DNA of 64,000 bases from Candidatus Poribacteria bacterium (GCA_965218095.1 OZ244587.1:3456001-3520000); one strand, 5' to 3'; shown: positions 4,163-64,000, numbered from the stretch's first letter. Numbers and translations are program-made. The notes: generated by a model from the sequence alone, not told the origin.

Positions 4163-4969
4163 GGTTCTGTTGACATTTCAAGGGAGCCATATAAGAGTGG
4201 CGACAAAGCTGAGAAATCCAAAATAACGGACAGCTAGCTTCTCAAACCGAGAGAAGATACGACGATACCATTTTATCTTGTTAATGAAACATTCAACCCG
4301 ATGTCTCTCTTTGTATAAGTGTTTGTCATACGTTCTTTGGTCAACACGATGACTTTTTGGCGGTATCACCGCAATCGCTCCATTCGCCTCAATAACGGCG
4401 ATAAAAGCGTCCGAATCGTACCCCTTGTCTCCAATCACATATTCACTGTTATATCCGATTATCAACCCTTCCGCCTCAGTTGTGTCATGTCTCTGACCGG
4501 GTGTCAGATGAATTCTTAGGGGATTGCCTAGTCCGTCAACTGTGATGTGAATTTTTGTACTGAAACCGCCCCGAGAGCGACCTAATGCTTGGTTTTCAGT
4601 TCCACCGTTTTTTTTAAGGCGCCCGCCGCAGACGGGTGAGCGCGGCAGATGGTACTGTCCACAATAAGCGACTCGATATCGGGGTCAGAGGCGAAGTGGT
4701 GGTGCATCTGTGTGAAGATACCTTTGTCGCACCATCGAGCAAACCGCTTGTAGCGGGTGTTCGATTTGCCATAGGTGTCTGGTAGAAGTCTCCATTGAGC
4801 CCCACTACGAGTCACCCACAGAACCGCTTCGACGAAGCGGCGTGTAGCAGCTAGATGGTGGGACAGCTTAGAAGAAACCGGTATATCTTATTCCATTGTT
4901 CATCAGGTAAGGTTATTGGCGTCATTCTTCTATTATGCCACAACCTTATACTCAAATGTCAACAGAACC
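4163..4969 (-). mobile_element. IS5-family (IS427-like) insertion sequence, degenerate
   Basis: 16-bp perfect terminal inverted repeats GGTTCTGTTGACATTT / AAATGTCAACAGAACC flanked by TA on both sides; encloses transposase ORFs. Confidence 0.9.
4178..4925 (-). pseudogene. IS5-family transposase, two-ORF type with A8 slippery site at 4608-4615; N-terminus broken near 4852
   Basis: [36 protein letters not shown] and YKERHRVECFINKIK motifs; early stop/frameshift after about 24 codons. Confidence 0.85.
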
Positions 4970-5003
4970 TAATACCGATGACTCGTTGATTCACCGATCC
5001 ATT

Positions 5004-6293
5004 ATGAAAATCGCCTATATTGCCGCAGGCGCCGCAGGCATGTACTGTGGCACCTGTATTCATGATAATACCTTCGCCGCGGCTTTGCAGAGGAAGGGAC
5101 ACGAGGTTGCTCTTATCCCAACCTACACACCCATCCGTACCGATGAAGCCGATATCAGCATCGATCGCGTATTTTACGGTGGGATTAATGTATATCTCCA
5201 GCAGAAATCGGGGTTATTCCGGCATACGCCCTGGATGTTTGATCGCTTATTCGATAGTCCCGCGTTGTTGAATGGGTTATCGCGTTTTCGTACCTCCACC
5301 AACGCCAAAGCCCTCGGGGCGCTCACCACTTCGGTGCTTCAGGGCGAGGAGGGACGACAGAAAAAGGAACTGGCGAAATTGGTGAAATGGTTGAAAGATG
5401 TCTATCAACCCGATATCCTCCAACTCACCAACTCTATGTTTGTGGGATTTGCGAGGGAAATGAAAAAAGCGTTGGGGGTTCCGATTCTTTGTGCGCTTCA
5501 GGGGGAAGACATTTTTTTGGAAAATCTCACTGAGCCGTACCAGTCGCAAGCACTGAGACTGCTACAACAGCGGGCTTCGGATGTGGACGGGTTCATTGCC
5601 CCTTGCCAATACTACGCCGATTTCATGGCAGGTTATCTGAATGTTCCAGTGGATAAAATTCATGTCGTGCATCTCGGTTTGAATCTGGATGGTCACGGAG
5701 ATCATCAAAAGAACATCAGCAAACCGCTTTTTGTTATTGGATACTTAGCCCGCATTTGTCCTGACAAGGGCCTGCATCTGCTGGTCGATGCGTTTTATCA
5801 GTTGACGGAGCAGATCGGATTGGATAAAATTCGACTCAAGGTTGCTGGCTACCTTGGTAAGGGGGATAGGCATTATTTTGAGAAGATAGTCAAGCAGATC
5901 GACAGATGGGGCGTATCGGATGCTTTTGAACATTGGGGTGAAGTCGATCGCCCTCAAAAAATCGATTTCCTCAACAGCCTCCATGTCTTATCCGTACCGA
6001 CAACATACAAGGACCCGAAAGGACTTTTCGTTTTGGAAGCACTCGCCAATGGCGTTCCAGTCGTTCAGCCGCGACATGGCGCCTTCCCCGAATTGATAGG
6101 AGCGACAGGCGGAGGCATATTGGTGGACGTTGAATCTCCCAGCGCCATCGCGGAAGGCATTCTTCAGTTAATGAATGATCCAAACGAACGAGAAAAACTC
6201 GGTCGGCAGGGGAAGGAAGCGGTGCATCGAGCGTTTAGCGATGACGTGATGGCAGAGGCGACTATGGCGGTTTATCGGAAGTATCTTGCGTGA
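5004..6293 (+). CDS. glycosyltransferase family 4
   Basis: GT-B C-terminal signature KGLFVLEALANGVPVVQPRHGAFPE; N-terminal GAAGMYCGTC. Confidence 0.9.
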   Translation: MKIAYIAAGAAGMYCGTCIHDNTFAAALQRKGHEVALIPTYTPIRTDEADISIDRVFYGGINVYLQQKSGLFRHTPWMFDRLFDSPALLNGLSRFRTSTNAKALGALTTSVLQGEEGRQKKELAKLVKWLKDVYQPDILQLTNSMFVGFAREMKKALGVPILCALQGEDIFLENLTEPYQSQALRLLQQRASDVDGFIAPCQYYADFMAGYLNVPVDKIHVVHLGLNLDGHGDHQKNISKPLFVIGYLARICPDKGLHLLVDAFYQLTEQIGLDKIRLKVAGYLGKGDRHYFEKIVKQIDRWGVSDAFEHWGEVDRPQKIDFLNSLHVLSVPTTYKDPKGLFVLEALANGVPVVQPRHGAFPELIGATGGGILVDVESPSAIAEGILQLMNDPNEREKLGRQGKEAVHRAFSDDVMAEATMAVYRKYLA

Positions 6294-52240: not shown

Positions 52241-52488
52241 GGAAATGAAGGAGCCGGGTGGGTAGCTAACCGAATTTGAACCCAAGGGAGGATACCGAAT
52301 CCTCCCCGCATCAGGTTGGACAGGGAATCGGTTTTAAGCCCCTGTTATCCTCTCTATTCTAATGATCTGCTTTTGACATTTGAGGTACGATCATAGTTCG
52401 ATAGCCAAATCAACAGATTTAGAACATTATCTGTCATTTGAAGAGGATTGCGCGGATAGATCAGCAACGACCTGATATAGGAGAAATT

Positions 52489-55400
52489 ATGTCCAATTGT
52501 AGCACATCTCGGTCCCGAATCCGAGACAATCACAAGCGGGGAACGGTTGGCGATTTTCTGAAGTCCGAAATCGAAAACGGTTCGTCGCTCTCCATTGTAT
52601 CGGCGTACTTCACGATTAACGCCTTTGACGCGCTAAAAGGGTATCTGCGCGGAATTGACGGACTTCGATTTCTGTTTGGTGAACCCGACTTTATCAAAAG
52701 CCTTGATCCGGAAAACACCGACGAGAAAGCCTTCAAAATTGTGGACGATGGCTTGGAACTTCGGGAACAGCTTCAACAGAAGCCGATTGCCAAAGCGTGC
52801 GCCGAGTGGATAGAAGATAAGGTAGAGATACGGTCAACCCGGCAATCGAATCTACTCCACGGAAAAATGTATCACATTGCCAACAACGGGGTGGAAAAAG
52901 CCATCATGGGCAGTTCCAATTTTACCGTGCGCGGACTCGGGTTGAGTCCGCCCCACGATAACATTGAACTTAATCTTGAGGTAGACGACTCCCAAGATCG
53001 CCACGACCTGAAAGCATGGTTTGATGAAATCTGGAATGACATGAACCACGTCGAAGATGTTAAAGCAAAAGTGATTGCCGCACTCAACCGGCTTGGAAAA
53101 GACCACGCGCCGGAGTTCATTTACTATAAGACGCTCTACGAGTTGTTCCGGGACGACTTAGAAGCCAGAATGAACAACGACCAGAAACTGGAAGACACGC
53201 ACCTGTACGACACAGAAATTTGGAAGGCGTTGTATGCCTTCCAGAAAGATGGCGTAAAAAGCGTTATCGCCCGTCTGTTGCGTCACAACGGTTGCATCCT
53301 CGCCGACAGCGTGGGATTGGGCAAAACCTACACGGCATTAGCAGTTATCAAGTTCTTTGAATTAAGAAATGACCGGGTGCTGGTGTTGTGTCCCAAAAAA
53401 TTACGCGAAAACTGGGCACTGTATTCAGAGCGTCATAACCAGCGCAACAACCCTTTCGAGGAAGATAAATTCGGTTATCATCTCATGTCGCATACCGACC
53501 TATCCCGTTACAGTGGTGAGTCCGGCGGCATCAATTTGGAAGGCTTTAATTGGAGCAATTTTGACCTAGTGGTGATCGATGAATCGCACAACTTCCGCAA
53601 CGACACCAAACCCGTTCGTGATGATGCCGGTAATGTCATCCGCCACAGTCGTTACACACGGCTGTTAGAGGAGGTTATCAAGGCAGGCGCCAAAACGAAG
53701 GTACTGATGCTTTCGGCGACGCCGGTGAACACCTCTCTTATTGACCTGCGAAATCAGATCTACCTGATGACCGGAAAGCGCGAAGAGGTCTTCCAGAAAA
53801 GTTTGGGGATCAGCAATATTCGCGCTTTGCTGGGGCAGGCGCAAAAGACGTTTAAGGCATGGGAGGACAGCCCGGACGAGGGCGGTGGTAGAGATAAGTC
53901 GAAGTTGCTGGCTGAATTGGGCGCCGATTTCTTCCAGTTACTTGGCGGCGTTTCTATCGCCCGCTCTCGGCGTCACATTGAGAATTTCTACGCTGAAGAA
54001 ATAGAGAGAATCGGCAAGTTTCCCGAACAACTGAAACCGGAAAACCATCACCCACCGACCGACCTGACCGGCGCGCTCTCTTATAAATACTTGGCTAAGC
54101 AGATAGGGAAATTCTCTCTGTCTATCTACACGCCGTCTAAGTACATTACCGACCCGAAGGTAAAGCGACGGTTGGCACAAGAGAAAAAAGAACGGCGGTT
54201 CAATCAGGAGGATCGCGAGCGGTTCCTGATCGGGATGATACGCACGAACTTCCTGAAGCGTTTGGAGAGTTCTGCACACTCCCTCACAGAAACACTCGGA
54301 CGCACCATCGGCAAAATTGACACCTTGCTGGAAAAGATTAACCGCTATGAACAAAACCAGCAGATGCCAGAAGCAGAAGCCGACATCCTTCCGGATGACG
54401 ACGAAGACGATGAGGAGTTCCTAGTGAATAGGGCACGTCACCCCTATCACTTGGGAGAATTGGATTGCTCCGGCTGGAAGGACGATCTCATAAAGGACAA
54501 ACAGACTCTGACCGAGGCGTGGGAAAGCGTCAAAGCAATCACGCCGGCGCGGGATGGCAAGCTCAAAGCGATCAAGGCGCATATTCGGGACAAGGCGCGA
54601 AACCCGATGATCGACAAGGACAGCAAGATCAAACGCAAGCTGCTGGTGTTCACTACTTTCAAGGACACGGCAGAGTACCTTTATGATAACCTGTCAGACT
54701 TGGCGGCGGAATTAGACCTGAACATGGCGTTGGTCTCCGGCGACGCGACGCGAACCACAATTAGCCCAAACAACTTCAACGCTATCCTGACTAATTTTGC
54801 GCCACGAGCCCGTGGGCGCGCCAACAACGGCGGCGGCGAAATCGATCTGCTGATCGCCACCGATTGCATATCAGAGGGGCAGAACCTGCAAGATTGCGAC
54901 ACGGTGTTGAACTACGACATCCACTGGAATCCGGTGCGTATCATCCAACGCTTCGGCCGCATTGACCGCATCGGCAGCCGCAACCTGTCTGTGCGAATGA
55001 TTAACTATTGGCCCACCGAAGACATGGAGGTCTATTTACGTTTGCAGAGTCGTGTGGCGGCTCGCATGGCACTCGCGGACGCAGCGGCAACCGGCGATGA
55101 AGACCCATTGAACGAATTGGCATACGAACAAGCCCAGATGGAACTGAATTTCCGCGACCAGCAATTGAAGCAACTGCGCGAAGATGTGCTCGACCTAGAC
55201 GACCTCTCCGACGGGGTTGTTCTGAGCGATTTTACGCTCGATTACTTCTTCACCCAATTGTTGCAGTATCTGGAAAAAAACAAGGCGGAATTGGAGTCAA
55301 CTCCTAGCGGGGTGTATGCAGTTACCCATGACGAAAAACGTCCCGAGGAAACGGGTGTCATCTTTTTTCTCCGCCAGCGGAACGCCAGCACGGATAAACA

Positions 55401-55779
55401 GAGAAAAACAGCCAGCCCCATTTACCCTTTTTATACGGTCTACATCCGCAACAATGGTGACATCCGCTACGGTTGTGCAAATGCCCGACAGGTGCTCGAT
55501 CTGTTTGAATCGGCGGCTGTCGGAAAGCCCAAACCGCTGCAAAACCTGTGCATCCAGTTTGACGGCGAAACCAGAAGCGGCAGGGACATGGCGCACTATG
55601 ACAAACTGTTGAAAGCGGTCATCGACCACATCAGCAGGGCACATAGAAAGACACAGATCAGAGGTATGGGGATTGGCGGCACACGCGGCTTCAAACTAGC
55701 TCCGAAATCCGAAGCCCCCAGAGATACCAGCGATTTTGAGTTGGTGACTTGGCTAGTTATCACAACCCCGCAGTCATAG
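52489..55779 (+). CDS. PLD-nuclease-SNF2-type helicase
   Basis: HGKMY...MGSSNFT (PLD), ADSVGLGKT, DESHN, LSATP, SEGQNLQ and QRFGRIDR motifs. Confidence 0.92.
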   Translation: MSNCSTSRSRIRDNHKRGTVGDFLKSEIENGSSLSIVSAYFTINAFDALKGYLRGIDGLRFLFGEPDFIKSLDPENTDEKAFKIVDDGLELREQLQQKPIAKACAEWIEDKVEIRSTRQSNLLHGKMYHIANNGVEKAIMGSSNFTVRGLGLSPPHDNIELNLEVDDSQDRHDLKAWFDEIWNDMNHVEDVKAKVIAALNRLGKDHAPEFIYYKTLYELFRDDLEARMNNDQKLEDTHLYDTEIWKALYAFQKDGVKSVIARLLRHNGCILADSVGLGKTYTALAVIKFFELRNDRVLVLCPKKLRENWALYSERHNQRNNPFEEDKFGYHLMSHTDLSRYSGESGGINLEGFNWSNFDLVVIDESHNFRNDTKPVRDDAGNVIRHSRYTRLLEEVIKAGAKTKVLMLSATPVNTSLIDLRNQIYLMTGKREEVFQKSLGISNIRALLGQAQKTFKAWEDSPDEGGGRDKSKLLAELGADFFQLLGGVSIARSRRHIENFYAEEIERIGKFPEQLKPENHHPPTDLTGALSYKYLAKQIGKFSLSIYTPSKYITDPKVKRRLAQEKKERRFNQEDRERFLIGMIRTNFLKRLESSAHSLTETLGRTIGKIDTLLEKINRYEQNQQMPEAEADILPDDDEDDEEFLVNRARHPYHLGELDCSGWKDDLIKDKQTLTEAWESVKAITPARDGKLKAIKAHIRDKARNPMIDKDSKIKRKLLVFTTFKDTAEYLYDNLSDLAAELDLNMALVSGDATRTTISPNNFNAILTNFAPRARGRANNGGGEIDLLIATDCISEGQNLQDCDTVLNYDIHWNPVRIIQRFGRIDRIGSRNLSVRMINYWPTEDMEVYLRLQSRVAARMALADAAATGDEDPLNELAYEQAQMELNFRDQQLKQLREDVLDLDDLSDGVVLSDFTLDYFFTQLLQYLEKNKAELESTPSGVYAVTHDEKRPEETGVIFFLRQRNASTDKQRKTASPIYPFYTVYIRNNGDIRYGCANARQVLDLFESAAVGKPKPLQNLCIQFDGETRSGRDMAHYDKLLKAVIDHISRAHRKTQIRGMGIGGTRGFKLAPKSEAPRDTSDFELVTWLVITTPQS

Positions 55780-55792
55780 CAAGTCCTTAGTC

Positions 55793-55945
55793 CAGTAGGG
55801 GCAGGTCTTGTGCCTGCCCTATACACCAACAGACACAATAGGGCAACCACGAGGGTTGCCCCTACGGAATCACCCGAATGACTGTAGGAGGGATTTCCTA
55901 ATCCCGACACCTCTCGTTCAGTAGGGGCAGGTCTTGTGCCTGCCC
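55793..55945. repeat. cluster of GTAG-type REP palindromes
   Basis: CAGTAGGGGCAGGTCTTGTGCCTGCCC occurs twice (55793, 55919) with an inverted GGGCAACCAC..GGTTGCCCCTAC between them. Confidence 0.8.
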
Positions 55946-55982
55946 AAAACTGAAGGCTGCTTAACAAACAGGAACGAAATAC

Positions 55983-58900
55983 ATGAACAACGAAGAGATC
56001 AAAAAGAAGGAAGAAATTGAATCCGCTTTGGCGGCAATAGCCGGCGGCGATTTTTTGGAAACCTCAATGGAACTACTAGCGGTTTTGGGCTACCGCAGCG
56101 AACTCACTGATGAACTTCCGGAAACGGTGGATGGCTTTATTGAGGAATTACCAGCCCGGAACAAAAACACCAAGACGGAACAGGAATTCCGAGATGACGC
56201 GGAATCGGTAGAGTTGGTGTTTCAAGTTGGGAGCGACGAAATTGCTGGTAGTCAGCTAACGTTGTTTGAGTCACGTTTCGATGAGGAGAATGAAGATAGT
56301 TTCATGTTTTTTACGGTTGAGTTGAAAGATAAAGACTACCCCCGAGGCAAATACGCCCAGTTTACACGAGAGGTCAACAAGCGGATGGTGATGCCGGTTG
56401 TGGTGTTCTTTCGTGTTGAGAATCGCTTGACCATAGGCTTTGTCGGTCGCCGTCCAAACCAGCTTGATGAATCCAAAGATGTCCTCGAAAAGGTGACACT
56501 GATCAAGGACATTCGGCTGAATGATCCGTACCGTGCACATAAAGATATTCTGTTTGAACTCTCGTTGGCGGAGTGCGCGAAATGGATGGCTGACCACAAC
56601 CAACCGAAAAACTTCGATGGCTTGCTCGCGGCTTGGCTTGCCCGACTGAATACCGAAGAACTCAACAAGCAATTCTACCGGAAGTTGTTCCACTGGTTTG
56701 AATGGGCGGTTGAGGAGGCAAAGTTTCCGACAGACAAAAATCGCACCTTGAAGCCGGAGGAGCACGTCATCCGCTTAATCACGCGCCTGCTGTTCGTCTG
56801 GTTTATGAAGGAAAAGAGGCTGGTTGCGGAAGAACTGTTCAACGAGACGCAAGTCTCCCCCTTACTGAAAGACTACGACCACGACACCGGCGATTCCTAC
56901 TACCGCGCGGTGCTACAGAACCTGTTTTTCGCCACACTGAACACCGAGATAGAGAAGCGTCAGTTTAGCAAAGGGGGAAACCCCGGCCATCGCAATTTCT
57001 CACGGTATCGCTACAAGGAGCAGATAAGCGACCCCGATAAACTGCTAAAACTGTTCGTCCAAACGCCATTTATCAACGGGGGCTTGTTTGATTGCTTGGA
57101 CAGCGAGGCGGCGACAGAGGGCGGCGGCTACCGAATTGATTGCTTTTCCGATGTGCACTACAAGAAGTTGAGCATTCCCAACCGTCTCTTTTTTGACAAA
57201 CAGCGCGGTCTGTTTCCCCTGCTGGAACACTACAAGTTCACCGTCGAGGAAAACACGCCGATAGAGCAGGAGGTCGCGTTGGACCCGGAGCTACTCGGCA
57301 AGGTGTTTGAAAACCTACTCGCCGCCTATAACCCCGAAACCGGCGCAACGGCACGGAAGCAGACAGGTTCTTATTACACCCCGCGCGCCATTGTGGACTA
57401 CATGGTGGAGGAAGCATTAATAGCAGGGCTAACAGGACAGGTGTCGCCAACAGATGGCAATGCAAAGTTTTGGGAAGAACGGTTGTACTATCTGTTCGAC
57501 TATGCGAAGGTGTTCGACGATGCGAGCGAATGGTTCGATAGCCGGGAATCGGACGAGGTTGTGCGGGCAATTTCAGAACTGAAGATACTGGATCCGGCGG
57601 TCGGTTCGGGTGCGTTTCCGATGGGTGCCTTGCACAAACTGACCCTCGCACTGCGGCGACTTGACCACGATAACACCCGATGGGAACAGCTACAGAAAGA
57701 ACGCGCCATCCAGCGGGCAGCGGATGCGTTTGATACGAAGGATAGACAATCACGCGATGAAGAACTCAAGGAAATTAGCAGAATCTTTGAAAATTATTCC
57801 GGCAACTTCGGGCGAAAGTTGTATCTGATCCAAAACAGCATCTTCGGTTTGGACATTCAATCCATTGCCTGCCAAATCGCCAAACTCCGCTTCTTCATCT
57901 CCCTTGCAATTGAGCAGAAGCCGGATCGAGACGCCGACAACTTTGGGATTAAGCCCCTGCCGAACCTGGAGACGCGCTTTATCGCAGCAAATACGCTAAT
58001 CGGCCTCGAAGGGGAGCTAACCCTGACAAGTCCCAAAGCGAAGGCGCTAGAGCATAAATTGAGCGCGAATCGCGAGCGACATTTCCACGCAACGACACGC
58101 CCACAGAAACTGGCGTGTAAGAGAGATGACAAGAAATTACGACGAGAATTGGCTACAGAGTTAAGACATATCGGTATGCCCGCCGATGATGCGGATAAAG
58201 TTGCCGACTGGGACCCCTACGACCAGAATGCAAGTGCGGATTGGTTTGACGCAAGACGGATGTTTGATGTTAAGAACGGGTTTGATGTGGTGATTGGCAA
58301 TCCGCCGTATATTAAGGAATATACATTTAAGCACGCATTCGATGGGCTTCGAGAGTCTCCTTACTATCAAGGTAAAATGGATATTTGGTATATGTTTGCC
58401 TGTGAAGGAATAGATATCATAAAAAACGGTGAAGGTGTAGTTACATTTATTGCTCAGAATAATTGGGTTACCAGTTATGGTGCTTCAAAGATGAGAAATA
58501 AAATTATTAAAGACGCGCAGGTTTTGAGTCTAATAGATTTTGGTAGTTTCAAGATATTTGAGTCCGGAATACAAACAATGATAATGATTTTCAGAAAAAA
58601 CACCGACTCTGACAGTTACTCGTTTGATTATAGGCGACTTCATGGGCGGGACCTCAATATCAACGATGTTATGTTGCTTCTCAATAAGAGCGATAACAGT
58701 AAAGCAGAACACTTAACTCCGACGATTAAAAGAAGTGAATACGCAGGTAGATCTTTAACATTTAGCAATTCTGAAGTTGAATTGATTCTTGAGAAGATTT
58801 CATTAAAGGGCAATCTTCGTCTAAATCCCAACAAGGAAGTCGCTCAAGGGATTGTCCCCAATCCAGATGTGGTTGGAACGTCGAATTTAAATAAGATTCC

Positions 58901-59645
58901 AGAACATAAAATGATAAAATACGGAATAAAAAAAGGCAATGGTGTTTTTGTCGTACCGAAAGACTTTTTCAAGAGGTTAAACAATTATGAAAAAAACCTG
59001 CTTAGGCCTCTTTATGAACCTAGCGACTTAACCCGATACTTTATAAAAAAACCGAGTTCCAAGGAAATCATTTACATAACAAAGTCCAATGATGACAAAC
59101 AAATACCAATTTTATTAGACCATCTAGAGAAATTTAGAGAGATAATGAACGCAAGAAGGGAAAACAAAAATGGTCGCCTCAATTACTATCACTTGCATTG
59201 GCCGAGAGATGAGTATTTTTTCAAACCAGGTCCTAAAATTTTATCGGTTCGAAAGTGTACTAGGCCAACCTTTACATACACTGAGGAGAGCGCATATGTA
59301 ATGATGGCTATAAACGTCATAAAATCAACCCGATTAGCTACTAAGTATCTTGTAGGTTTGTTAAACTCCAAACTGATTGCTTTTTGGTTAAAACATAGGG
59401 GGAAGATGCAAGGAACAAATTATCAAATTGACAAACAGCCGTTATTAGCAATCCCCTTAATTTCACCTTCATTTGAACAAAAGGCTTCGGTTGAAACTTT
59501 AGTTAATCAAATCCTTGAGGCCAAGTGCGCTGACCCAGATGCGGACACTATCGCCCTTGAAAATGAGATTGATCGGTTGGTATACTCATTATACGATCTC
59601 ACCCCCAAAGAAATCGCTATTGTGGAGGAAGCGGAAAATGTCTGA
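55983..59645 (+). CDS. Eco57I/TaqI-like N6-adenine DNA methyltransferase with C-terminal TRD (type IIG-like)
   Basis: GSYYTP, LDPAVGSGAF, IGNPPY, TaqI_C-like LLNS..., IDRLVYSLYDLT tail. Confidence 0.92.
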   Translation: MNNEEIKKKEEIESALAAIAGGDFLETSMELLAVLGYRSELTDELPETVDGFIEELPARNKNTKTEQEFRDDAESVELVFQVGSDEIAGSQLTLFESRFDEENEDSFMFFTVELKDKDYPRGKYAQFTREVNKRMVMPVVVFFRVENRLTIGFVGRRPNQLDESKDVLEKVTLIKDIRLNDPYRAHKDILFELSLAECAKWMADHNQPKNFDGLLAAWLARLNTEELNKQFYRKLFHWFEWAVEEAKFPTDKNRTLKPEEHVIRLITRLLFVWFMKEKRLVAEELFNETQVSPLLKDYDHDTGDSYYRAVLQNLFFATLNTEIEKRQFSKGGNPGHRNFSRYRYKEQISDPDKLLKLFVQTPFINGGLFDCLDSEAATEGGGYRIDCFSDVHYKKLSIPNRLFFDKQRGLFPLLEHYKFTVEENTPIEQEVALDPELLGKVFENLLAAYNPETGATARKQTGSYYTPRAIVDYMVEEALIAGLTGQVSPTDGNAKFWEERLYYLFDYAKVFDDASEWFDSRESDEVVRAISELKILDPAVGSGAFPMGALHKLTLALRRLDHDNTRWEQLQKERAIQRAADAFDTKDRQSRDEELKEISRIFENYSGNFGRKLYLIQNSIFGLDIQSIACQIAKLRFFISLAIEQKPDRDADNFGIKPLPNLETRFIAANTLIGLEGELTLTSPKAKALEHKLSANRERHFHATTRPQKLACKRDDKKLRRELATELRHIGMPADDADKVADWDPYDQNASADWFDARRMFDVKNGFDVVIGNPPYIKEYTFKHAFDGLRESPYYQGKMDIWYMFACEGIDIIKNGEGVVTFIAQNNWVTSYGASKMRNKIIKDAQVLSLIDFGSFKIFESGIQTMIMIFRKNTDSDSYSFDYRRLHGRDLNINDVMLLLNKSDNSKAEHLTPTIKRSEYAGRSLTFSNSEVELILEKISLKGNLRLNPNKEVAQGIVPNPDVVGTSNLNKIPEHKMIKYGIKKGNGVFVVPKDFFKRLNNYEKNLLRPLYEPSDLTRYFIKKPSSKEIIYITKSNDDKQIPILLDHLEKFREIMNARRENKNGRLNYYHLHWPRDEYFFKPGPKILSVRKCTRPTFTYTEESAYVMMAINVIKSTRLATKYLVGLLNSKLIAFWLKHRGKMQGTNYQIDKQPLLAIPLISPSFEQKASVETLVNQILEAKCADPDADTIALENEIDRLVYSLYDLTPKEIAIVEEAENV

Positions 59646-59756
59646 ATCACGGATTAAACAGATGACGCGGATAGCGCGGATTTCTTGAATCTGTGGCAAT
59701 CTGCGATTCTGACAATGAAGAAATTACTATTGTGGAGGAAAGAGAAGGAAATTATA

Positions 59757-60893
59757 ATGGATGATTTAACTACTTCGCTACTACGGGATTTAGAAGAGGA
59801 AGCCACTGAAGCTAAAGTCGAAACCGAAGAAGCGTGCAACAAAATGCTCAGAGATTTGCACACTAATAACCCCCAACTCATGGCTGCAGAGGTCAAAAAA
59901 CTTAATGATGTGAACCTTACAATGTTCTTTGGCAATAGTTCCGCTGAATCCAAAAGCTGGAAAAAATACCATCACCAATTGGAGGCTCGCCTGCTCAAGC
60001 AGATTTCTTCTGAGGTGGGAAAGTTTCTTAATTGCCCAGTAGAAGCCAGTGAGTTAAAAAAGTACCTGGTAGACTCTAGAAACAAAAACAATGAGTTGAA
60101 TGGAATTGTTCATGGTCCCAAGCGGGAAATTGACAAAGTACGTCAAATCTGCGATGACTTTCAAGTTAGGACTATGACAGAGATACGGGACATGTTTATA
60201 CGAGTTACGATTGAACGCGCTCGTCACATCGGACAGCCCGTCTTACCGGATATTCGTATAACACTACTCTTCCCCACCTCTAGTACGACAAATGTACTGA
60301 TATATCATGCGGAGGCGGATGTAGTGAAGGCGGATTGCATCTATCGTCTACCATCAGTGACACTAGATACCAATGTGGTTCTCTATATGAAGAAAGGAAA
60401 GATAGTAGACCCGCTGGAACTCCGCAAGAAATGCCCGGTGGATTTAGCAGTTACACACCGAATCCGAGAGGATCTGAAACCTTTGCTGTCTGATGAGCAG
60501 TTTCTTACAGATAACTATATTAGAAAAATTCCTTCAATTATGCGCTGTTGTTTCGACAGCCGAAGCGAGCGATTCCTACTTAATCCAGAGTTCGACAAAC
60601 CGGGGAGTACCGAGTTTTTAAAGATGGCCGAATCTATTATTGACGATTTTAAACAAACCGGGGAGAATCCTCCAGAATATCAAGACTGGGATCACCTCCA
60701 CGCCCATTACATGTCTGGGAGAGATTTTTTTCTGACAGAAGATAAAAAAATTCTTAAGATTAATTGTCAGTTAAAAGAATTAGGTATTCGCGTAATGAGA
60801 TTTGAAGAATTCTTAAGATTGATTGAAAAAAATGGGATATTGTTGTATCCAAAAAATCCTGAAAATCCTAAAATCCAGTCAATCCAGATTTAG
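59757..60893 (+). CDS. hypothetical protein with C-terminal PIN-like domain
   Basis: VTLDTNVV ... DWDHL ... FLTEDKKIL acidic PIN pattern. Confidence 0.65.
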   Translation: MDDLTTSLLRDLEEEATEAKVETEEACNKMLRDLHTNNPQLMAAEVKKLNDVNLTMFFGNSSAESKSWKKYHHQLEARLLKQISSEVGKFLNCPVEASELKKYLVDSRNKNNELNGIVHGPKREIDKVRQICDDFQVRTMTEIRDMFIRVTIERARHIGQPVLPDIRITLLFPTSSTTNVLIYHAEADVVKADCIYRLPSVTLDTNVVLYMKKGKIVDPLELRKKCPVDLAVTHRIREDLKPLLSDEQFLTDNYIRKIPSIMRCCFDSRSERFLLNPEFDKPGSTEFLKMAESIIDDFKQTGENPPEYQDWDHLHAHYMSGRDFFLTEDKKILKINCQLKELGIRVMRFEEFLRLIEKNGILLYPKNPENPKIQSIQI

Positions 60894-60907
60894 ACAAAGG
60901 AAAAAGA

Positions 60908-62431
60908 ATGAGCGAACCACTAGAAGTATTCATTACCTATTCACATGAGAACACAGAAGCAAAAGACGAACTCATAACGCGCCTTGCTGTGATGAAGCAA
61001 CAAAATGAATTAGTAACTTGGCACGACAACGAAATGCTTCCCAGTGACAAGTGGCGTGAAGAAATTTTTTCCACGCGCCTTCCCAATTCGGATCTTTTGC
61101 TCTACCTCGTCTCCGCTGCGAGCCTTGCCTCTGAAAACTGCAATAGGGAGTTGGCAGTAGCCTTAGAAAAAAACATAAAACCCATCCCGATTATCCTTGA
61201 GGATTGCGATTGGAAAAAGCATCAACTTGGTGAATTCCAAGCTCTTCCTGACAAAGGCAATCCTATTAACGAGTGGGAATTTAAGAGCAAAGGTTGGCAA
61301 AATGTAGTAGAGGGCATCCGAAAATTCGTTGACGCAATGCAGTCTCAGGTGGATTCGCCTCCCAGTACGCCTGAAGAAGAACTACGCGCTGAATTGGCAA
61401 TCCAACAGGGTAATTTTCTGCTAATGCTCAAGCAAGTAGACAGGGCGATAGAAACCTATTCACGCGCGATTGACCTCAATCCTCGCGCTGCTCATGCCTA
61501 TTATAATCGTGGCAATGTTTACCACAACAAAGGCGAGTTTGGACGCGCCATCACAGATTATACCAAAGCAATAGAATTGAACCCTAATCTTGCGGAAGCC
61601 TACAACAATCGGGGTAATGCTTACATGGACAAAGGCGATTCAGGGAGTGCCATTGCAGACTATAATAAAGCGATACAACTCGACACCAATTGTGCCAGTG
61701 CCTATTACAATCGTGGTGTGGCTTACGGAGAAAAAGGCGATACTGACCGTGCCATCGTAGACTATACCAAAGCGATAGAACTAAATCCTGATTATACCGA
61801 GGCCTATAACAATCGCGGTCTTGCTCACAGTAAGACAGGCAATCTTAATTGTGCCATTGCAGACTATGACAAAGCGATACAACTGCGACCAAATGATGCC
61901 GAAGCCTATAACAATCGCGGTCTTGCTCATAGTAAGACGGGTAATCTTGACTGTGTCATTGAAGACTTTACCAAAGTGATACAACTGCGACCAAATGATG
62001 CCGAAGCCTATAACAATCGTGGAGTGGCATACCACAGAAAGGGCGAAATTAATCTTGCCATTAAGGACTATAACCGGACGATGGATTTGAATCCCGATTT
62101 TGTTGCCAAAGTCTATTGCAATCGTGGCGAGGCGTGGTTACATCTGAGAGAATGGGGCAAAGCCAAATCAGACCTGACTGCTGCCAGAGACATGGGTGTA
62201 GATATCATTACCTCGTTTCATAACGAATACGCAAGCGTCTTGGACTTCGAGCAGAAACACGATGTTCAGCTACCAGCAGACCTCGCCGCCATGCTGACAC
62301 CCCAGGGAGTCGCCATAGGAGAAGAAGTAGAGCGGGAAGCCCCCCATGAATTGGCGAGCGATTTTGAAATCGTCTTAGACGAGATAGTAAGAAAATACGA
62401 TCGAGCATGGAAAACTCTAGCCAAACCTTGA
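60908..62431 (+). CDS. TIR domain + about 8 TPR repeats + antitoxin-like tail
   Basis: VFITYSH, SENCNREL, IPIILEDCDW; repeated AYNNRG units. Confidence 0.9.
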   Translation: MSEPLEVFITYSHENTEAKDELITRLAVMKQQNELVTWHDNEMLPSDKWREEIFSTRLPNSDLLLYLVSAASLASENCNRELAVALEKNIKPIPIILEDCDWKKHQLGEFQALPDKGNPINEWEFKSKGWQNVVEGIRKFVDAMQSQVDSPPSTPEEELRAELAIQQGNFLLMLKQVDRAIETYSRAIDLNPRAAHAYYNRGNVYHNKGEFGRAITDYTKAIELNPNLAEAYNNRGNAYMDKGDSGSAIADYNKAIQLDTNCASAYYNRGVAYGEKGDTDRAIVDYTKAIELNPDYTEAYNNRGLAHSKTGNLNCAIADYDKAIQLRPNDAEAYNNRGLAHSKTGNLDCVIEDFTKVIQLRPNDAEAYNNRGVAYHRKGEINLAIKDYNRTMDLNPDFVAKVYCNRGEAWLHLREWGKAKSDLTAARDMGVDIITSFHNEYASVLDFEQKHDVQLPADLAAMLTPQGVAIGEEVEREAPHELASDFEIVLDEIVRKYDRAWKTLAKP

Positions 62432-62844
62432 AGTATTTGACAATTGAGGACATTCTGAGGGTTGCCAAGGGGCAGGTGGGTAGCTATCAGTTGTTGAATG
62501 AAAATCAGTTACACTATTTGGTTGAAATAGTCGGTGAAAAATTAGGTGATACAGAACTGTTTCCGACTTTGCCCAAAAAAGCTGCTGTATATGCCCATCA
62601 CATTATTACTGGACATATATTTTCCGATGGGAATAAACGTATCGGCCTGACTTGTGCGCTCGCGTTTTTAGTTTTGAATGGCTGTTCTCTTCATCGCAAC
62701 ATTGATGATTCGATTATTGAGCTTGGCTTTAAGATTGCGGATGGGACGATAACCGATCTGGAGATAATCGCCGAGGATTTACAATCATGGATTCAGCGAC
62801 AGACGTATGAATCGGTTGTATTTACATTAGATCCGTTTAACTGA
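62428..62844 (+). CDS. doc: Fic/Doc (death-on-curing) toxin
   Basis: HIFSDGNKRIG Doc motif; TTG start overlaps the upstream TGA. Confidence 0.88.
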   Translation: MKYLTIEDILRVAKGQVGSYQLLNENQLHYLVEIVGEKLGDTELFPTLPKKAAVYAHHIITGHIFSDGNKRIGLTCALAFLVLNGCSLHRNIDDSIIELGFKIADGTITDLEIIAEDLQSWIQRQTYESVVFTLDPFN

Positions 62845-63042
62845 GGGCGGAAATTGTCAGAATCGCGAATTAGACCGGAGTTGACACAGGTTACGCTGTT
62901 TTAATCCGTGGCAATCTGTGATTCAGACAACGCAGAAATCTCCCTTGTGGAAAAACCGCCGCCCTGAAATCCTGAGAATCCTAAAATCCAGTAAATCCAG
63001 ATTCAGACAATGAGGAAATCGCCATTGTGGAGAACAAAAAGT

Positions 63043-64000
63043 ATGGCAAAAAAAGAGCCGCGCCGTGTCAAAACTCTGAGCGAGTTTATAGAATGGGCAG
63101 CACAATTCAGGGACGGACGATATCTGTTTCGTGGTGTTTCAAACGACGCCTACAAAATAGAGGCATCTGCTTACCGCCGCCTGCGAGAAGCGGACAGAAA
63201 TAATCCGAGTAAGCTACTCAAAATCAATCAGGAATTGATAGAAAAAGCACGAGGTCGGGGACACGATCAGAAAAACGGTCAGCGACTATCCGATCTGGAA
63301 CTACTTGCAGAACTTCAGCACTTCGGCGCAGCCACCTGCCTGATAGACTTTACACGCAGTGCATTGGTCGCGCTCTGGTTTGCCTGCCAACAAAGTGCCA
63401 AGGGAGAAGCAAACGGTAAAGTATTCGCTGTCCGTAGCGATGATCCGGCACGCTTGAAAACGGTTAATCCGGAATTGATAAAAAAAGATATTGACCACTT
63501 TCTCAACTTGGATGAAAACGATAACTATCTGCTATATCAATGGGATCCCAAACTTCAGAATAATCGCATCATCGCCCAGCATTCAGTTTTCCTATTTAGC
63601 GGTGCCCAAATTGAAGCAGAGGCTGAATGTGTAATCATAAAAAGTAGCAAGCAAGACATCCTGACATCTCTGGATAAAATATCAGATATCGCTGAAGAGA
63701 GTATTTATCCTGACTTTGACGGCTTCGCTCGCGTACATGCCCACGATAAACCCTACATTGAACCCAACGCCCACGGCTATCTGCGACGCGGTATTGAGGC
63801 ACAGCAAAATAATAATCTGGATGATGCTATCGCCTACTACACTGAAGTCATACGGTTAGAGCCGGACCCCGGCATTGTTGCCAATGCCTGTTACAATCGC
63901 GGCGTGGCTTACAGGAAAAAGGGAGATTATGACCGTGCCATTGCAGACTATACCAAAGCGATAGAACTCAATCCCTATTATGCCAACGCCTATAACAATC
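63043..64000 (+). CDS. FRG domain + TPR protein (runs off the window)
   Basis: hand translation YLFRGVS, LQHFGAATCLIDFTRSALVALWFAC, RIIAQHSVF, then TPRs. Confidence 0.9.
   Translation, partial: MAKKEPRRVKTLSEFIEWAAQFRDGRYLFRGVSNDAYKIEASAYRRLREADRNNPSKLLKINQELIEKARGRGHDQKNGQRLSDLELLAELQHFGAATCLIDFTRSALVALWFACQQSAKGEANGKVFAVRSDDPARLKTVNPELIKKDIDHFLNLDENDNYLLYQWDPKLQNNRIIAQHSVFLFSGAQIEAEAECVIIKSSKQDILTSLDKISDIAEESIYPDFDGFARVHAHDKPYIEPNAHGYLRRGIEAQQNNNLDDAIAYYTEVIRLEPDPGIVANACYNRGVAYRKKGDYDRAIADYTKAIELNPYYANAYNN

Follow-up and report, generated by a model that had tools for sequence, protein, structure and literature searches.

This report concerns a defence array that begins near the end of a 64,000-nucleotide stretch of the genome of a Candidatus Poribacteria bacterium (GCA_965218095.1, OZ244587.1:3456001-3520000; G000:C1:3456001-3520000 in our numbering; hereafter the window), and in particular the repeated junctions by which the genes of that array are joined. 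The array is approximately 21 kb long and reaches window-equivalent position 81.1 kb, the window holding only its proximal part. Every large open reading frame (ORF) from 52.4 to approximately 81.1 kb lies on the plus strand, and GFO/IDH/MocA oxidoreductase genes form both flanks. According to Pfam, NCBIfam, and PADLOC, the array comprises two Eco57I/type-IIG-like DNA methyltransferases (MTases) and many defence genes. It starts with an SNF2/PLD gene ("HKD+Snf2"), MTase1, a gene for a 378-aa protein, a TIR-TPR gene, Doc, an FRG-TPR gene, and a repeat region; continues with a truncated GxxExxY (PDDEXK_3) gene fused to TPR, MTase2, a GxxExxY gene without a start codon, a second TIR-TPR gene, and a split FRG/TPR gene; and ends with an intact GxxExxY gene, a fused AriA-AriB (PARIS-like) ATPase gene, a TPR protein gene with a 137-aa ORF, an FRG-TPR gene, and a gene for a 105-aa membrane protein (PDC-M50A). 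A first-pass annotation of the window had proposed that defence genes are stacked behind a restriction-modification (RM) locus, and the co-oriented array confirms this. Co-transcription of the array is presumed; in a scan, promoter-like and terminator-like sites occurred at the level of shuffled sequence, with no terminator-like plus-strand site at the junction palindromes described below.

The locus appears to be a defence island whose anchor is a hypervariable type-IIG-like MTase, with an SNF2/PLD nuclease as its partner. MTase1 (55983..59645, plus strand) is an Eco57I/type-IIG-like N6-adenine MTase with a TaqI_C specificity domain (Pfam Eco57I, N6_Mtase, and TaqI_C; PADLOC REase_MTase_IIG, 223 bits). 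Upstream of it lies an SNF2 helicase-PLD/HKD nuclease fusion (52438..55779, plus strand; Pfam Helicase_C, SNF2-rel_dom, PLDc_2, and ResIII; PADLOC C3a139 'HKD+Snf2', 378 bits), which is likely the restriction partner of MTase1; cleavage may be supplied by this neighbouring protein rather than by a nuclease domain of MTase1 itself. Of 61 related genomes, 52 contain homologues of the MTase, frequently as many copies. Their residues 1 to approximately 870 are conserved, mostly at 52-77% identity, and the C-terminal part is variable, with alignment extending through residue ~1216-1220 in only seven homologues among the matches listed, the gene itself included. The native MTase tail (T; 59608..59638, plus strand) encodes …KEIAIVEEAEN and includes GCGGAAAA, which must be native MTase sequence because the palindrome-free junction of a relative (locus L019) carries GCGGAAAA too. 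The MTase had earlier been taken to end at 59630, but the ORF runs five codons further, and its stop codon (59643-59645) falls within the first arm of a palindrome.

This palindrome 1 (59639..59714, plus strand; 76 nt) is preceded by GCGGAAAA, is detected by nhmmer with an E-value of 7.7e-17, and is predicted to form a DNA hairpin of -15.2 kcal/mol (z -3.5). A diverged copy, palindrome 2 (62855..62929, plus strand; 75 nt; nhmmer E 3.2e-05; hairpin z -1.7), is preceded by GGCGGAAAT. The repeat finder also returned a half-unit, the right arm of a second element subtype with AATCC repeats ending in GATTTAGACA, at 60854..60897 and, at 93% identity to the first copy, at 62967..63010 (both plus strand). 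The third repeat class is the MTase tail itself: relative to the reference motif at 59608-59630, copies lie at 59718-59740 (91%), 62933-62955 (74%), and 63013-63035 (83%), and each of these three downstream copies, here called T', follows GATTCWGACA at a fixed offset. All three classes are present where the first-pass annotation had placed them, and their motifs exceed chance as judged from 100 shuffles of the window: GATTCWGACA has five matches (0.40 expected) and GAAATYNNNATTGTGGAG, with up to two mismatches, has four (0.44 expected), counts that none of the 100 shuffles reached. When the genome was scanned with a 20-nt tail at up to three mismatches, nine of the 12 matches fell between window-equivalent positions 59610 and 80726, all on the plus strand.

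The T' copies appear to be relics of MTase 3' ends rather than target-site duplications. T' relic 1 (59718..59756, plus strand), a decayed MTase 3' end with 91% identity to T, would terminate in the MTase frame with a TGA stop overlapping the ATG of the 378-aa gene; relic 2 (62933..62955, plus strand) is degenerate and has no gene after it; and relic 3 (63013..63043, plus strand) places GGAG ahead of the ATG at 63044. Beyond the window, the T' of the FRG-TPR gene at 78.9 kb runs directly into the start codon (GTGGAGGACAAATCATGAAC) and, read as an MTase tail, ends …IVEDKS with its TGA overlapping the ATG. The relics vary in length: most are cut 5 nt before GAAAT, ~11 nt more are kept at 71.89 kb, the 78.7-kb relic holds ~70 nt of the MTase 3' end with no palindrome ahead, the 80.7-kb relic retains …DRLTSEEIAIVEEALERKLT, and relics of ~23 aa and ~7 aa are present in this array. 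It had been claimed that the junction supplies each cargo gene with its ribosome-binding site. This stands at four of the ten tail-like positions read across the array, which have a start codon within ~40 nt (59757, 63044, ~71919, and ~78958) and at which T' would act in translation as a leader; it fails at the other six, where further repeat elements come next, and at the TIR-TPR genes, whose leader differs from T'. The cassette that closes the array (tail relic, 75 nt, and membrane-protein gene) occurs once more on the minus strand at genome positions 5326400-5326760, where a palindrome right arm stands ahead of it and interrupts a small antitoxin-like ORF; this is the only joint of right end plus tail outside the island.

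The palindromes belong to a family resembling miniature inverted-repeat transposable elements (MITEs), with perfect 10-nt inverted termini (TGTCWGAATC / GATTCWGACA) and GGATT-type subterminal repeats; junction palindromes measure 76-92 nt and family copies span 76-118 nt. A profile search with nhmmer located 31 distinct loci genome-wide, ten of them inside a 27-kb island, all scoring best on the plus strand, and 21 outside it. Full two-armed copies of the second subtype occur at genome positions 4219503-4219712, between hsdM and hsdS. Folded as single-stranded DNA, the elements give imperfect hairpins, with z-scores of -3.1 to -3.9 in three of four cases and -1.7 for palindrome 2. Among 12 palindrome copies from seven genomes, none of the 29 predicted pairs showed compensatory changes, and nothing therefore points to selection on the hairpin structure. 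Rfam, run in E-value mode over 59400-64000, returned no matches.

Comparison of the array with itself revealed two colinear modules at ~86-88% identity, each consisting of MTase, palindrome, TIR-TPR, FRG-TPR, repeat region, and GxxExxY. MTase1 and MTase2 share 85.6% DNA identity over 1.7 kb. What sets the modules apart is inserted precisely at the joints: only module 1 has the 378-aa gene and Doc there, and only module 2 has a GxxExxY unit.

The junctions were then sought in the 61 related genomes, and 20 loci of relatives (L015-L034) were fetched, with Pfam applied to 51 of the 98 cargo ORFs of the relatives. The pattern of palindrome right end plus tail occurs in 14 of the 61 genomes, with 37 matches (eight in this genome) and no match for a reversed control. 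Elsewhere, 22 of the 29 matches lie at most 15 kb downstream of, and on the same strand as, an MTase homologue among the matches listed; the other seven lie at a contig end, in a genome without an MTase match, or near nothing among the matches listed. Most fetched loci with a full-length MTase share one layout, namely MTase, T, palindrome, T', genes, right end plus T', and further genes, the exceptions being L019, L031, and L034, in which a palindrome with exact termini is missing, and L030, in which it is truncated. Right ends are far commoner than left ends in these loci. Thus, scanning the genome and its relatives, as the first-pass annotation had suggested, bore out conserved junctions with cargo that varies between relatives. 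The same annotation had named ordinary genome-wide palindromes without the tail motif, together with invariant gene order, as what would count against it. The palindromes are indeed spread through the genome, and most of those elsewhere have no tail motif, but the joint of palindrome plus tail is specific to MTase-linked arrays and the downstream content is not invariant. A downstream flank (ORFs of 202-203, 311, and 421-456 aa) is common to four species, and the genes between this flank and the MTase differ. A cassette of BrnT plus TPR-PDDEXK_3 takes differing positions in its five carrier loci, with a right end and T' just upstream in four of the five and ~340 nt upstream in L022.

Two relatives show the joint without and with its palindrome. 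At the empty site of L019, the MTase tail directly overlaps the TIR-TPR start codon (…GGCGGAAAAGGAAAGAAAATGAGC; …GTGGAGGCGGCGGAAAAGGAAAGAAAATGAGC…), and the TIR-TPR gene was therefore translationally coupled to the MTase. In our array, the TIR-TPR leader AGGAAAAAGAATG (also AGGAAAAAGAATGAGC, after the half-unit) is this native MTase/TIR-TPR overlap sequence of L019. At the filled site of L033, a 92-nt palindrome is bordered exactly by GGAAAA on one side and AAGGGAAGAAAATGAGC on the other, with a duplication of at most 2 nt. Four of the 20 relatives' loci (L020, L023, L025, and L026) carry C-terminal pieces of an MTase, 45-268 aa long, behind the resident MTase, and two of these displaced fragments are fused to TIR-TPR, with their own overlapping partner gene next. 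In these two cases (L020:6104-8971, and L023 at oriented positions 4256-6211) TIR-TPR is fused in frame to the MTase TaqI_C domain plus tail, and the next gene is an SMC_N/AAA gene whose start overlaps the stop of the fusion. Of 347 ends of homology blocks (at least 85% identity over at least 250 nt), 83 lie no more than 60 nt from a palindrome terminus, the expectation being 8.3%. Four alignments of MTase genes stop in or at the palindrome, namely those of L015/L016, L015/L023, L016/L023, and L030 with our own locus; L015 and L016 are 92.8% identical up to that point. Metagenome contigs from four public runs, compared with positions 54000-64000, were short and broke at repeats. Many of their joints fall in TPR repeats, and among these short contigs none bridged a cassette deletion at a junction. 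In runs X4 and X6, the MTase1 specificity region is covered at 99.7% identity or more and the 378-aa gene has no cover, a lead only, as missing cover is not evidence.

GxxExxY genes recur in the same surroundings. This genome has four copies, every one of them within an RM locus and flanked by palindrome arms on at least one side, and 17 of the 27 strong matches in 29 genomes lie in RM loci, 12 of them in arrays of this MTase family and five beside type I genes. GxxExxY genes are thus concentrated in RM loci, and their function is therefore testable; neither solved structures nor a characterised relative were found for the protein, and a literature search for GxxExxY returned nothing on function. 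Copies of the GxxExxY unit are 95.8-98.6% identical, compared to ~87% in their surroundings, and the terminus motif is near only 15 of 26 GxxExxY loci. In a type I RM operon of this genome (4218800-4219800; L039), a GxxExxY gene and three copies of the palindromic element stand between hsdM and hsdS, and the last ~37 nt of hsdM recur behind the insert (30 of 37 identical by reading), carrying the GGAGGA and GTG of hsdS; an MTase unrelated to MTase1 thus shows a parallel to the joints of the array. In one relative (L056; G039:C15, 900-2650), right arms of the element are arranged in tandem, seven in a row with a period of ~87 nt; a GxxExxY gene adjoins them, with an MTase homologue immediately upstream. 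Another dispersed non-coding repeat accompanies GxxExxY genes (window-equivalent 73800-74260 and 65015-65290; genome 3283600-3284282). It contains 78-aa "ORFs" that are probably not genes, and a palindrome right arm ends its locus at genome 3283600-3284282.

We lean towards reading the array as a mosaic that was built and reshuffled by homologous recombination, with no dedicated cassette recombinase, in a manner resembling C-terminal displacement at rhs loci. The homology-driven alternative offered by the first-pass annotation fits this evidence. From the anatomy of the array, its conservation in relatives, the variable cargo, the empty site, the displaced MTase fragments, and the breakpoints at palindromes, we infer the direction and mechanism of the events as follows. 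In the ancestral layout, an accessory defence gene would have been translationally coupled to the MTase, with its Shine-Dalgarno sequence and start in or overlapping the MTase tail. Crossovers would occur in the conserved MTase body and conserved 3' tail, in the 76-92-nt palindrome that immediately follows the MTase tail and also follows most cargo genes, and in the TPR repeats that the cargo proteins carry in near-identical form. Recombination would bring in a new MTase, specificity domain, or module upstream, or the MTase body would be deleted between two palindromes, and the old tail would remain joined to its partner gene after displacement. T' would tend to be retained because the tail holds the translation-initiation region of the partner gene. 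What such displacement leads one to look for, namely a conserved core with a decoupled, variable C-terminus and displaced C-terminal fragments downstream, is found in this MTase family.

Several observations weigh against this recombination account. The offset between right end and T' is the same in most junctions across several genera, which random recombination does not predict and which calls for either one ancestral junction from which all the others descend or a site-specific event. Near-identical palindromes beside diverged MTase tails remain unexplained: palindrome 1 and the copy after MTase2 are 98.8% identical over 85 nt, compared to 83.5% for the 200-nt alignment that includes the MTase tails, and a near-identity that ends at the element termini resembles the outcome of recent transposition or targeted conversion rather than that of plain homologous recombination. 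The account also leaves the first T-palindrome-T' unit unexplained. The enrichment of breakpoints is only about three-fold, and the block endpoints are not independent because the loci are related. Finally, no segment of at least 95% identity is common to non-syntenic arrays of different species, and therefore no recent exchange was found. It is for the constant offset, the near-identical palindromes, and the origin of the first unit that a site-specific mechanism keeps a small but real share of our credence.

Such a mechanism would be an active cassette system in which palindrome plus tail serve as an att-like site, used by an enzyme whose gene lies elsewhere or by the GxxExxY PD-(D/E)XK nuclease of the array itself, with cassettes captured, excised, and reordered. 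We regard this as rather unlikely. The shared orientation of all cassettes, the fixed offset in most junctions of 14 genomes, the single-strand hairpins, the same cassette at different positions in different arrays, the near-identity of the MTase1 and MTase2 palindromes up to their exact termini, and the company that GxxExxY genes keep with RM loci would all suit it, but no recombinase domain was found among the 24 ORFs of the 31 kb examined (window position 49.9 kb to window-equivalent 82.8 kb), and the nearest PF00589 (Phage_integrase, tyrosine recombinase) match lies ~440 kb away at genome position 3.073 Mb, in keeping with the first-pass remark that no integrase is visible. Its description of the array as integron-like fared less well. 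Co-oriented cassettes that vary between relatives are present, but nothing exceeded the cut-off of the integron integrase model TIGR02249 genome-wide (best, a frame with seven stops at 1.537 Mb), neither GTTRRRY nor RYYYAAC cores occur in or within 10 nt of either palindrome or either half-unit, and 21 of the 31 palindrome loci lie outside the island. Integron-integrase-like fragments were noticed at genome positions 1536854-1537808, 2745024-2745251, and 1055430-1055824, the best at 216 bits against a cut-off of 265 and with seven in-frame stops; they could represent a decayed integron elsewhere, by position unrelated to the array. The absence of compensatory changes in the hairpins speaks against a cassette system as well, as do junctions that range from whole palindromes to right arms alone, tandem right arms, and relics of differing length, together with gene fusions and split genes typical of imprecise recombination. 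The terminus motif, present near only some GxxExxY loci, and the want of any characterised GxxExxY relative do not help the proposed nuclease. It is a long shot that the joint is the true site of a trans-acting enzyme, with the RM-linked GxxExxY nuclease the obvious candidate, and that the array is an integrase-free cassette platform; were it so, capture behind the MTase stop would always restore the MTase tail and give the newcomer a ready ribosome-binding site, and sponge-symbiont bacteria would have arrived independently, a second time, at the integron principle and devoted it to immunity genes.

That a transposable MITE targets the MTase tail and duplicates ~30 nt on insertion, arrays being repeated insertions at duplicated targets, strikes us as very improbable. 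Some IS4/IS1634-group elements do make long, variable duplications. The geometry of a long staggered cut would account for a left end that abuts the end of the tail, a right end that abuts a point ~33 nt upstream in the copy, and the ~37 nt of hsdM, and the element has the small size, TG…CA termini, 10-nt inverted repeats, subterminal repeats, and 31 dispersed loci of a MITE. Against this, a long target duplication for the dispersed copies is ruled out by the absence of flanking direct repeats in all seven full-length or partial copies tested outside RM loci (p at least 0.18 against shuffles), the palindrome of MTase2 has no T' behind it, the pair of L019 and L033 shows insertion with at most 2 nt duplicated, and flanking T and T' are never identical among the T-flanked pairs listed. 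Nor was a transposase with matching ends found: pairs of termini within 2.5 kb enclose none in this genome, the one nested family being a 355-nt non-coding repeat, and none of the four Y1_Tnp matches is flanked by the palindrome beyond chance matches of 10-11 nt, and no link to RAYT/REPIN elements was seen. The genes lying between the repeats would be left unaccounted for. Ordinary tandem duplication of the MTase and its accessory module, followed by decay, with the junction repeats as inherited elements of the 3' untranslated region that play no part in rearrangement, is likewise improbable. The colinearity of the two modules invites it, as do several junction variants that occupy one locus in different species and are orthologous there, such as the CCCTT variant of the tail, which L016, L018, and L023 all carry at their distal end. 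However, cargo in the same slot differs between modules and between species, the same cassettes occupy different positions in different arrays, homology blocks end at palindromes above expectation, and the GxxExxY unit is more alike between its copies than its surroundings are.

The 378-aa gene (59757..60893, plus strand), whose last codons enter the half-unit, had been called a PIN protein, but it matches no Pfam, NCBIfam, or PADLOC family, and a high language-model score is a weak lead only. The TIR-TPR gene (60908..62431, plus strand; Pfam TIR_2 and TPRs; PADLOC ThsB-like TIR) has a second copy at 70170-71610 with 87% identity. Its product carries a 45-residue C-terminal extension (62296-62431) that is missing in the second copy and overlaps the start of a Fic/Doc-family gene (62407..62844, plus strand; Pfam Fic), as if an antitoxin-like segment were fused to a TPR protein. 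The 3' end of the second TIR-TPR gene is broken by a ~55-nt insert with small CCCGATAAATCGGG-type hairpins (window-equivalent 71616-71670); its homologues end …AAMLTPQQ. The FRG-TPR gene (63044..64000, continuing to window-equivalent 64485, plus strand) matches Pfam FRG and TPRs and PADLOC PDC-S15. A C-terminal peptide, …DFE..NGV.LP.DIAAML…, is common to TIR-TPR, FRG-TPR, and plain TPR proteins whatever their N-terminal domain (for example at window 62230-62300 and L001 8560-8616 and 17630-17698), and could be a common docking or regulatory tail. The fused AriA-AriB (PARIS) match is a 571-aa ORF at window-equivalent 74821-76536 (L001:11821-13536; 198 bits; AAA_21 and DUF4435).

The array offers a nucleotide-level picture of how a defence island may be assembled and kept expressible without a resident mobility gene. 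Its reusable joints appear to be a short dispersed palindrome and the conserved 3' tail of the RM methyltransferase. Genes once coupled to the MTase would stay translatable through the tails left behind, and the "displaced tips" logic would carry over from polymorphic toxin loci to restriction-modification genes. Effector-TPR proteins, whose N-terminal domains include TIR, FRG, and PD-(D/E)XK, form a family with a physical tie, in one case also a translational one, to a type-IIG-like MTase/SNF2-PLD pair. These proteins are candidates for guardians or partners of the restriction system, and a PARIS-like sensor that responds to anti-restriction proteins, sited within an RM-anchored array, fits a putative guardian role.

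Searches of the literature on Poribacteria, cyanobacteria, MITEs, RM, TPR, TIR, and GxxExxY returned no description of this junction or of such arrays, and the closest known systems each share part of its features. Like MITEs, repetitive extragenic palindromic (REP) sequences, bacterial interspersed mosaic elements (BIMEs), and REPINs, the palindrome is short, non-coding, and hairpin-capable, with inverted termini and dispersed intergenic copies; unlike them, it showed no target duplication or RAYT association and, in this genome, no autonomous partner, and about a third of its loci lie in one 27-kb island in a single orientation. Integrons likewise consist of packed, co-oriented genes with imperfect 60-120-nt palindromes between them and an adjoining anchor, with content varying among relatives, but here there is neither IntI nor attC core motifs, the palindrome family is dispersed in the genome, many "cassettes" hold several genes, and the junctions contain pieces of the anchor gene. 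At genomic islands in tRNA genes, the 3' end is duplicated such that the target gene stays intact, and tandem accretion gives repeated att-like copies. Both traits recall the present array, which differs in having no integrase and in repeats that are imperfect and of varying length. Defence genes in or beside RM operons, and gene sets swapped at a fixed locus without a resident mobilising enzyme, are exemplified by PrrC in the EcoPrrI locus and by cassette-like variation at the E. coli immigration control region (reviewed in PMC12707154). Compared to these, the present arrays are long, and their conserved, repeated joint is partly MTase-derived.

The system that the array resembles most in its proposed history belongs to the polymorphic toxin loci, among which orphan cdiA-CT modules are also counted. 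For rhs loci, Jackson et al. (2009; PMC2935791) described C-terminal displacement together with arrays of tips that have become dissociated, and orphan Rhs modules have been described as well (PMC3967940). In both settings, a long conserved core is combined with a hypervariable C-terminal part, co-oriented leftovers downstream keep a piece of the main gene and their own partner gene, and homologous recombination is the proposed driver. The anchor here, however, is the DNA methyltransferase of a restriction system rather than a secreted toxin, and the partners are unrelated defence genes rather than immunity genes; most relics here comprise ~20-30 nt of the extreme 3' end rather than the core-tip boundary, and a MITE-like palindrome stands in nearly every joint.

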